Virus record (IMG/VR): IMGVR_UViG_3300045012_000066
Coordinates: 1 to 64,000 of that record
Origin: a virus
Reading direction: 5' to 3' (one strand)
DNA length: 64,000 nt
Part shown: one piece after another, positions 18,795 to 19,328 of the stretch
Numbering within the stretch: position 1 is the first letter of the stretch
Layout of the letters: each line of letters begins with the position of its first letter
Program-made: the position numbers and the translations under genes
Notes under the pieces: model-generated
Databases searched by the model: none
The model's input: only the letters and a program-made list of their open reading frames with translations
Told to the model about the DNA's origin: nothing

Positions 18795-18845
18795 GACGGC
18801 TATTGTTTGACACTCCAGTGCGGCCCGTGCAACCATACCTGAGTT

Positions 18846-18911
18846 ATGACCATGAAACACCTCAGTTCGCTGTCCTCTAGCTCATCTCTGAGCGAAAGCG
18901 GAGGCGTGTAG
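18846..18911 (+). CDS. Ser-rich leader peptide MTMKHLSSLSSSSSLSESGGV
   Basis: 21-aa ORF with 9 Ser codons covering all six Ser codons, immediately upstream of a terminator and two tRNA-Ser genes. Confidence 0.65.
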   Translation: MTMKHLSSLSSSSSLSESGGV

Positions 18912-18937
18912 CTGAAGGTCTAATTAGGTTCAGCGAG

Positions 18938-18969
18938 CGCCTTCCGAATGCCGGAAGGCGTTTTTATTT
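18938..18969 (+). terminator. intrinsic terminator (attenuator) upstream of the tRNA cluster
   Basis: CGCCTTCCG-aatgc-CGGAAGGCG followed by TTTTTATTT. Confidence 0.8.
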
Positions 18970-18974
18970 GCGCG

Positions 18975-19064
18975 GGAGGATCGGCAGAGTTTGGAGCGCT
19001 GCACAGGTTTGCTAAACCTGCTGACCGCAAGGCAGAGTCGGTTCGAATCCGACATCCTCCGCCA
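18975..19064 (+). tRNA. tRNA-Ser(GCT)
   Basis: Acceptor GGAGGAT/ATCCTCC, anticodon arm CAGGT-ttGCTaa-ACCTG, long variable arm, TTCGAAT, encoded CCA. Confidence 0.9.
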
Positions 19065-19071
19065 GAAGTAC

Positions 19072-19165
19072 GGAAGCGTGGACGAGTTGCTAAAGTCACC
19101 AGTCTCGAAAACTGGCGTGTCCTACGAAAGAGGCACCGGGGGTTGAATTCCCTCCGCTTCCGCCA
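19072..19165 (+). tRNA. tRNA-Ser(CGA)
   Basis: GGAAGCG/CGCTTCC, CCAGT-ctCGAaa-ACTGG, long variable arm, CCA; T-loop variant TTGAATT. Confidence 0.85.
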
Positions 19166-19172
19166 TAGTTTT

Positions 19173-19247
19173 GAGGCGGTCTTCTAACGGTCAGGAAATC
19201 GGGTTTTCATCCCGAGAATGGGAGTTCGACTCTCCTCCGCCTTGCCA
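19173..19247 (+). tRNA. tRNA-Glu(TTC)
   Basis: GAGGCGG/CCGCCTT, TCGGG-ttTTCat-CCCGA, TTCGACT, CCA. Confidence 0.9.
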
Positions 19248-19252
19248 GATGT

Positions 19253-19328
19253 GGGACGATAACTCAAGTGGCAGAGTACCCGCCTTTTAAGCGGGAAGTT
19301 GGGGTTTCGATCACCCCTCGTCCCACCA
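19253..19328 (+). tRNA. tRNA-Lys(TTT)
   Basis: GGGACGA/TCGTCCC, CCCGC-ctTTTaa-GCGGG, CCA. Confidence 0.9.

Follow-up and report, generated by a model that had tools for sequence, protein, structure and literature searches.

The tRNA operon of this soil phage is probably gated by a ribosome-mediated, serine-sensing leader-peptide transcription attenuator, a reading of the sequence and of folding models to which we assign a probability of roughly 55%. The virus record is 122,463 bp long with 57% G+C, and the window, the whole stretch of DNA analysed here, is its first 64 kb. Immediately ahead of four clustered tRNA genes lie a short serine-rich open reading frame (ORF) and an intrinsic terminator, and the leader RNA can fold in alternative ways that either permit or prevent formation of the terminator.

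The tRNA island and its setting

Only five tRNA genes are present genome-wide, four of them clustered at 18975–19328 and the fifth, a lone tRNA-Trp, at 23788. The cluster, on the + strand, comprises tRNA-Ser(GCT) (18975–19064, with CCA encoded), tRNA-Ser(CGA) (19072–19165), tRNA-Glu(TTC) (19173–19247) and tRNA-Lys(TTT) (19253–19328), the same four genes that the first-pass annotation had placed here. The genes near the island are all on the + strand as well, and a terminator scan found no terminator between the end of the upstream gene (18183–18794) at 18794 and the leader ORF. As there is no space for a promoter belonging to the tRNAs themselves, they must be transcribed through the terminator at 18935–18963. 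No such leader precedes the tRNA-Trp gene. Comparison with genome contigs for host inference gave two distant matches to MAGs and nothing else.

Relatives of the upstream gene were sought in viral, metagenome and genome collections. The sole island-bearing record found, IMGVR_UViG_3300031823_000002 (the twin), is 97% identical. In the locus L026 (L026:1476–2295), whose upstream-gene product is 75% identical, there is no island and the next gene follows directly. With the island and its leader absent from this relative and found only in the twin, we consider it an insertion specific to the phage and its twin and, on this sequence comparison, a recent one. A blastn search of 18700–19560 against 50,697 phage records gave no match, and a distant 101-kb relative with 22–27 tRNAs (G002) was rejected as a parallel, its tRNA array being headed by neither a leader nor a terminator of this sort.

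A candidate promoter and its family

A −35 hexamer, TTGACA, lies at 18807–18812 on the + strand. The first-pass annotation had reported a promoter here, and the −35 half of that claim stands; the −10 box is weak, and because of this the consensus scan called no promoter at the leader. By reading the sequence, independently of any scan call, a candidate extended −10 element (TG-c-AACCAT, 18828–18836, + strand) can be placed after an 18-nt spacer. It predicts a transcript start at about 18842–18844, only 2–4 nt ahead of the ATG.

The −35 hexamer is part of a longer motif, TTGACAC-nnn-AGTR, that occurs on the + strand at 18807 and 19371, with a looser copy at genome position 67051, and the extended form TTGACAC-nnn-AGTRCCGAG is found at three minus-strand sites in the window (59135, 56812 and 49342). 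Hexamers resembling −10 boxes lie 17–18 nt downstream of sites of this family, and the spacing from −35 box to ATG at the leader equals that of the second module at 19371, described below. These copies look like a promoter family, and their common extension past the −35 box suggests either that one regulator binds them all or that the phage has a promoter class of its own. A promoter inside the terminator itself (TTCCGA ... TTATTT) was also considered and rejected, as a poor match for which the scan made no call.

The leader ORF and its serine codons

The leader ORF (18846–18911, + strand) consists of 21 codons followed by TAG and translates as MTMKHLSSLSSSSSLSESGGV*. It begins 39 nt after the −35 box and ends 64 nt ahead of the first tRNA. 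Nine of its codons specify serine, in the order AGT, TCG, TCC, TCT, AGC, TCA, TCT, AGC, AGC, compared with 6.2% of codons in the long ORFs of the phage, and the composition given in the first-pass annotation, nine serines that use all six serine codons together with AAA and GAA, is correct. Among the 788 ATG-initiated ORFs of 15–60 codons in the 122-kb genome this is the most serine-rich, and at the background frequency of small ORFs the probability of at least nine serines in 20 codons is 3 × 10⁻⁵. The choice among serine codons carries no such signal. All six would be expected among nine in ∼14% of draws, which lends the observation no weight, and five of the nine are cognate to the tRNA-Ser genes of the phage, against 58% in its general serine usage, so that no bias towards the phage's own anticodons is apparent relative to the long ORFs.

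No Shine-Dalgarno sequence precedes the leader ORF, while the ordinary genes of the phage have strong GGAGG-type sites; translation would therefore have to be leaderless or nearly so. Provided that the predicted transcript start is correct, the ORF would indeed be near-leaderless. Two minus-strand genes, at about 49290 and 43360, share a near-identical ribosome-binding context, TTACCGGGAGGGGTAA(A)TG, which is unlike that of both leader ORFs described here.

The missing Shine-Dalgarno sequence also suits a simpler explanation, in which the terminator at 18935–18963 is constitutive and leaky. It would end transcripts from both the upstream operon and the TTGACA promoter and let a fixed fraction read through, and the serine-rich ORF would be untranslated, its composition coming from the pyrimidine-rich strand of a hairpin. 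The lack of a terminator between the upstream gene and the hairpin fits this explanation, as does the occurrence by chance of 40–41% serine in other small ORFs of the genome, the runners-up having 7 serines in 17 codons and 8 in 20. It leaves unexplained why the most serine-rich small ORF should lie directly before two tRNA-Ser genes. We think this account unlikely, and two further findings, given below, bear on it.

The terminator and the alternative RNA pairings

The terminator (18935–18969, + strand) is formed by a left arm at 18935–18946 (region 3), a right arm at 18952–18963 (region 4) and a T tract. Its stem has 12 base pairs, seven of them G-C, closed by a 5-nt loop, with a core energy of −16 kcal/mol and the tail TTATTTGCGC, and merely 6 nt separate its end from tRNA-Ser(GCT). 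The description of it as strong in the first-pass annotation is borne out by the 12-pair stem and T tract.

Two further segments of the + strand complete the set of pairing regions. Region 2 (CGGAGGCGU, 18899–18907) lies inside codons 18–21 of the leader ORF, and its partner in the folds is either region 1 (18859–18878) or the left arm of the terminator. The second of these pairings is an antiterminator, in which CGGAGGCG(U) at 18899–18907 pairs with 18937–18946 through nine base pairs with one bulged U, much as had been proposed from the sequence at the outset, and this helix encloses a spacer hairpin, hairpin B (GCTGAA...TTCAGC, 18911–18934). When the nascent RNA extends to 18946–18950 the antiterminator is the minimum-energy fold (z = −3.2). 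In the minimum-energy fold of the full leader the terminator is present instead, together with a long imperfect anti-antiterminator helix whose 5′ strand is region 1 (18859–18878, codons 5–11), paired with 18897–18919. Static folds of the complete leader all favour the terminator, which counts against the switch; it would have to depend on kinetics.

Masking the 5′ part of the leader brings out the alternative pairing. With the whole leader free, the left arm of the terminator gains −3.0 kcal/mol, and 81% of shuffled sequences do as well or better. When the first 43–55 nt are omitted, this being the part that would be masked by a ribosome on the regulatory serine codons 7–14 (18864–18887, + strand; seven Ser and one Leu), the gain becomes −11.7 to −15.1 kcal/mol compared with −6.7 ± 2.9 for shuffled sequences (p ∼0.006). 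The 2:3 pairing thus beats shuffled sequence only with region 1 masked. As a control, 16 other terminator-like hairpins in the genome were treated likewise, and one of them reaches a similar p, at one window size; this hairpin, at 65081, was rejected as an attenuator candidate because it is located among minus-strand genes. Pairings 1:2 over the serine codons, 2:3 and 3:4 have all been computed, and the geometry of trp, his and thr attenuation, which the first-pass annotation had recognised here, is upheld.

The twin provides a comparison at close range. Its leader peptide is identical, with one synonymous change (CTC>CTT), and four changes fall in hairpin B at 18911–18934, one of them converting an A-U pair of the stem to G-U and three being in the loop; all of the alternative pairings survive. 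The static minimum-energy fold also contains a long-range helix that joins 18919–18931 to the 5′ end with its AUG. This helix was given no role because two of the twin's substitutions would disturb it, whereas the stem of hairpin B is kept.

These pairings bear on the constitutive terminator introduced above in two ways. The serine-rich stretch is indeed one strand of a long imperfect hairpin, as that explanation proposes for the origin of its composition, but the match between region 2 and the left arm, evident solely with region 1 masked, is left without a reason. Another explanation is a switch that responds to something other than a ribosome. A protein, a tRNA or another RNA would in that case bind region 1 or region 2, and the terminator would be switchable with no part played by the peptide; the alternative pairings stand on their own, translation of the ORF being a prediction. 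Searches of 18795–18974 with the Rfam models of the His, Thr, Trp and Leu leaders and of the T-box gave no match at E ≤ 1, and no other riboswitch match was obtained in Rfam. The leader before the switch, at only ∼55 nt, is also short for a ligand-binding domain. Neither the serine bias nor the position of the stop codon beside region 2 would be explained, and both recur in the two unrelated phages described below. A non-ribosomal trigger is in our view the least probable of the explanations considered.

Predicted steps of regulation

For the serine-sensing attenuator that we favour, the parts suggest the following sequence of events. Transcription would begin just ahead of the ATG at 18846. 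If the leader is untranslated, or if a ribosome moves quickly to the TAG at 18909, region 2 would be paired with region 1 or lie beneath the ribosome; with region 2 unavailable, the terminator at 18935–18963 would form and the transcript would end before the tRNAs. In this default state the terminator would also halt read-in from the upstream operon. When seryl-tRNA is scarce, a ribosome would stall at serine codons 7–14 and cover region 1, and region 2 could then pair with the left arm of the terminator, allowing RNA polymerase to read into tRNA-Ser(GCU), tRNA-Ser(CGA), tRNA-Glu and tRNA-Lys. Because the first two of these products decode five of the nine codons that serve as sensors, negative feedback on serine decoding capacity would result.

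The footprint of a ribosome extends roughly 12–15 nt past its A site, and stalls at codons 7–14 would accordingly leave region 2 free, while a ribosome at the TAG would cover it. The same consideration limits the signal to serine. The first-pass annotation noted in the leader a cognate codon for each of the downstream tRNAs, but to conclude that all of them are sensed is an over-reading: one AAA together with one GAA is expected in ∼11% of draws and carries no weight, and the two are in the wrong place, at codon 4 and codon 17 respectively. Only the serine run can regulate, because a ribosome halted at Lys4 leaves region 1 largely free to pair, and stalls at Ser16, Glu17 and Ser18 cannot free region 2 because the ribosome there covers it.

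The same layout in other phages

For comparison we took every viral locus with the same 17-nt anticodon arm as the tRNA-Ser(GCT), 33 in all, without any other selection. Each of their tRNA blocks (n = 69) was scored for a small ORF that lies upstream and is enriched in the amino acids of the block itself. The window leader ranks second of the 69 in this match between leader and downstream tRNAs, and a block in the locus L146 ranks first. Such leaders are not the rule, since no serine-rich ORF lies within 260 nt upstream of the 24 other tRNA-Ser genes that come first in their blocks in the phage sample, a scarcity that also fits the constitutive terminator.

The L146 element (L146:10156–10346), on the minus strand of a 476-kb contig, has a consensus promoter, a leader ORF at 10279–10202 (MKSLSLSLCSSYLSLRWTGLCVQRT) containing Ser, Leu, Cys and Tyr, and a 12-pair terminator at 10183–10156; the tRNAs that follow are Cys, Cys, Tyr, Tyr, three Leu, Ser and two Leu. 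A comparable element is found on a 58-kb contig (L162:6620–6825), where a near-leaderless ORF at 6664–6759 (MFFLSISLSYSSSSALLSLSSLCSCGEVLVD), rich in Ser and Leu, precedes a terminator that starts at 6791, three tRNA-Leu genes, a tRNA-Tyr and a further tRNA-Leu, with two Ser tRNAs lying 384 nt further downstream. In both elements the final eight codons of the ORF include a copy of the right arm of the terminator, equivalent to region 2. Pairing brings gains of −12.9 and −14.1 kcal/mol (p ≤ 0.003), which are lost when the region 2 segment is omitted.

Neither element is related in sequence to that of the window, and the two therefore give independent support to such leaders as a real design. 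From their layout they suggest a widespread class and not a one-off. A leaky constitutive terminator leaves this recurrence unexplained, both in L146 and L162 and in the second module of the same phage.

A second module and the Ro60 neighbourhood

The second module (19371–19540), 560 nt downstream of the first, has the same −35 motif, a near-leaderless ORF of 22 codons (19410–19478) and a terminator at 19507–19530. Its ORF is of mixed composition and shows no codon bias. The sequence GGCTTGGG at 19481–19488, beside the stop codon, pairs with the left arm of this terminator only if the 5′ part of the leader is masked, the gain being −10.5 kcal/mol when masked (p 0.004–0.013) and 0.0 when unmasked. 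These folding models lend support to the use of leaderless-ORF attenuators by this phage.

Two observations concern the flanks of this module. A perfect AT-rich inverted repeat, AATTACTT-TGTAT-AAGTAATT, lies at 19346–19366, directly upstream of the −35 box, and may serve as an operator or form a weak stem after the tRNA cluster. Directly after the terminator, at 19541–19564, the sequence GCGGTAGCTCAATGGCTGCACAGC resembles a tRNA acceptor strand and the start of a D-arm; neither ARAGORN nor Rfam calls a tRNA at 19541–19564, and on this resemblance the segment may be a tRNA remnant.

Downstream of the module come a small gene whose ribosome-binding site is GGAGG, then YrlA-like RNAs and a gene for Ro60 (TROVE). 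Sub-threshold matches to YrlA (Y-RNA-like) and to tRNA-like sequences occur at 20047–20108, 20955–21052 and 21524–21625, and the gene at 21573–23105 encodes TROVE and Ro60-vWA domains. Judged by these matches, a phage Ro60/Y-RNA module adjoins the tRNA island. The loci with relatives of the Ro60 gene (L138–L141) contain no tRNAs and match neither module; in L138–L140 a YrlA-like RNA precedes Ro60 as well.

A third unit with a promoter and a terminator is located outside the window, at genome positions 67051–67200 (L136:3051–3200), and is about 110–130 nt long. The terminator of this unit, CCCCCAAGCC...CTTGGGGG, is similar to the one in the second module. An ORF at the corresponding distance is absent, and the unit is possibly a small RNA gene. 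The leader of the tRNA operon might itself be read in this way, as a promoter, a structured RNA of ∼130 nt and a terminator, the RNA acting in trans, for example through its CCUC/UCCUCU stretches that resemble an anti-Shine-Dalgarno sequence, and the tRNAs being expressed by incidental read-through. The presence in one genome of three units of ∼110–130 nt with promoter and terminator (18807, 19371 and 67051) agrees with this, as does the folding of the leader, which is better than that of shuffled sequences (z = −2.7). Terminated attenuator RNAs can also act in trans in other bacteria, as described for rnTrpL of Sinorhizobium (PMC6614838). On the other side, no Rfam family matches the leader, the 67051 unit has no ORF at the same spacing, so that the ORFs of the first two modules are not a general trait of such units, and the tRNAs would still need passage through the terminator. 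A small-RNA role, which is in any case compatible with attenuation, strikes us as distinctly improbable as the whole explanation.

Relation to known systems

The features of the enterobacterial leaders trpL, hisL, thrL, leuL and pheL are textbook knowledge, and the serine leader resembles them in several respects. In each, regulatory codons are clustered in a short ORF, 1:2, 2:3 and 3:4 pairings are available, and an intrinsic terminator precedes the regulated genes, with ∼125 nt from the ATG to the T tract. The element in the window differs in that it is phage-borne and would regulate tRNAs instead of biosynthetic enzymes, has no Shine-Dalgarno sequence, carries region 2 inside the last codons of its ORF, and shows no sequence relation to these leaders. 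The mechanism proposed here is that of trp-type leader-peptide attenuation as modelled in PMC1183508.

A closer parallel for the start of translation is offered by the polycysteine leaderless short ORFs of mycobacteria, in which a stalled ribosome opens a sequestered ribosome-binding site of Cys metabolism genes (Canestrari et al., bioRxiv 10.1101/834739). These share with the serine leader a leaderless short ORF (here a predicted one), a run of codons for one amino acid, and a stall (again predicted here) that remodels the downstream RNA. Control by these mycobacterial ORFs is translational, however, whereas the output here would be transcriptional read-through into tRNA genes.

Regulated tRNA arrays are also known. 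The trn tRNA operon of Anabaena PCC 7120 is induced under translational stress (PMC8421152), and, as proposed for the island, it is an accessory tRNA array that is silent by default and comes on when translation is impaired. Control of that operon is exerted by a repressor that binds direct repeats in the promoter, and PMC8421152 mentions no leader peptide, attenuator or terminator. Literature searches, on phages and beyond, turned up no publication in which tRNA genes are controlled by leader-peptide attenuation, in keeping with the first-pass annotation, which was not aware of any for phage tRNA operons.

The purpose of phage tRNA genes has been debated for decades (PMC10264068). The two main ideas are codon compensation and the replacement of tRNAs destroyed by host defences. 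Phage tRNAs are described as countering tRNA-cleaving defences in the accessible portions of PMC10264068, PMC11555353 and PMC11464382, and tRNA-Ser(CGA) is given as a documented cleavage target of VapC5 in that of PMC10287673. These sources suggest why a phage would profit from making tRNAs for Lys(UUU), Glu(UUC) and Ser(CGA) when they are needed, and the portions in question contain no sensing or attenuation mechanism for phage tRNA genes. By analogy with them, anticodon nucleases offer a plausible context for the tRNA genes of this island.

Implications for phage tRNA supply

Taken beyond the serine leader, the findings lead us to a broader proposal, which we advance more tentatively than the attenuator itself: that phages may set their own tRNA supply by demand. 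Leaders written in the codons of the downstream tRNAs would sense slow decoding, for instance when host tRNAs have been cleaved or have decayed, and would open a terminator in response. Here a serine copy would gate the tRNA operon, and a second, codon-diverse copy may gate the Ro60/Y-RNA module, the two forming a joint response to translation damage and belonging to a general, unpublished class of tRNA gene control. The element is self-contained and only ∼170 nt long, and is thus directly testable with a reporter. If the proposal is true, trp-style attenuation would extend from amino-acid genes to tRNA genes, and the phage tRNAs would be an on-demand repair supply, switched on when the matching codons are read slowly.
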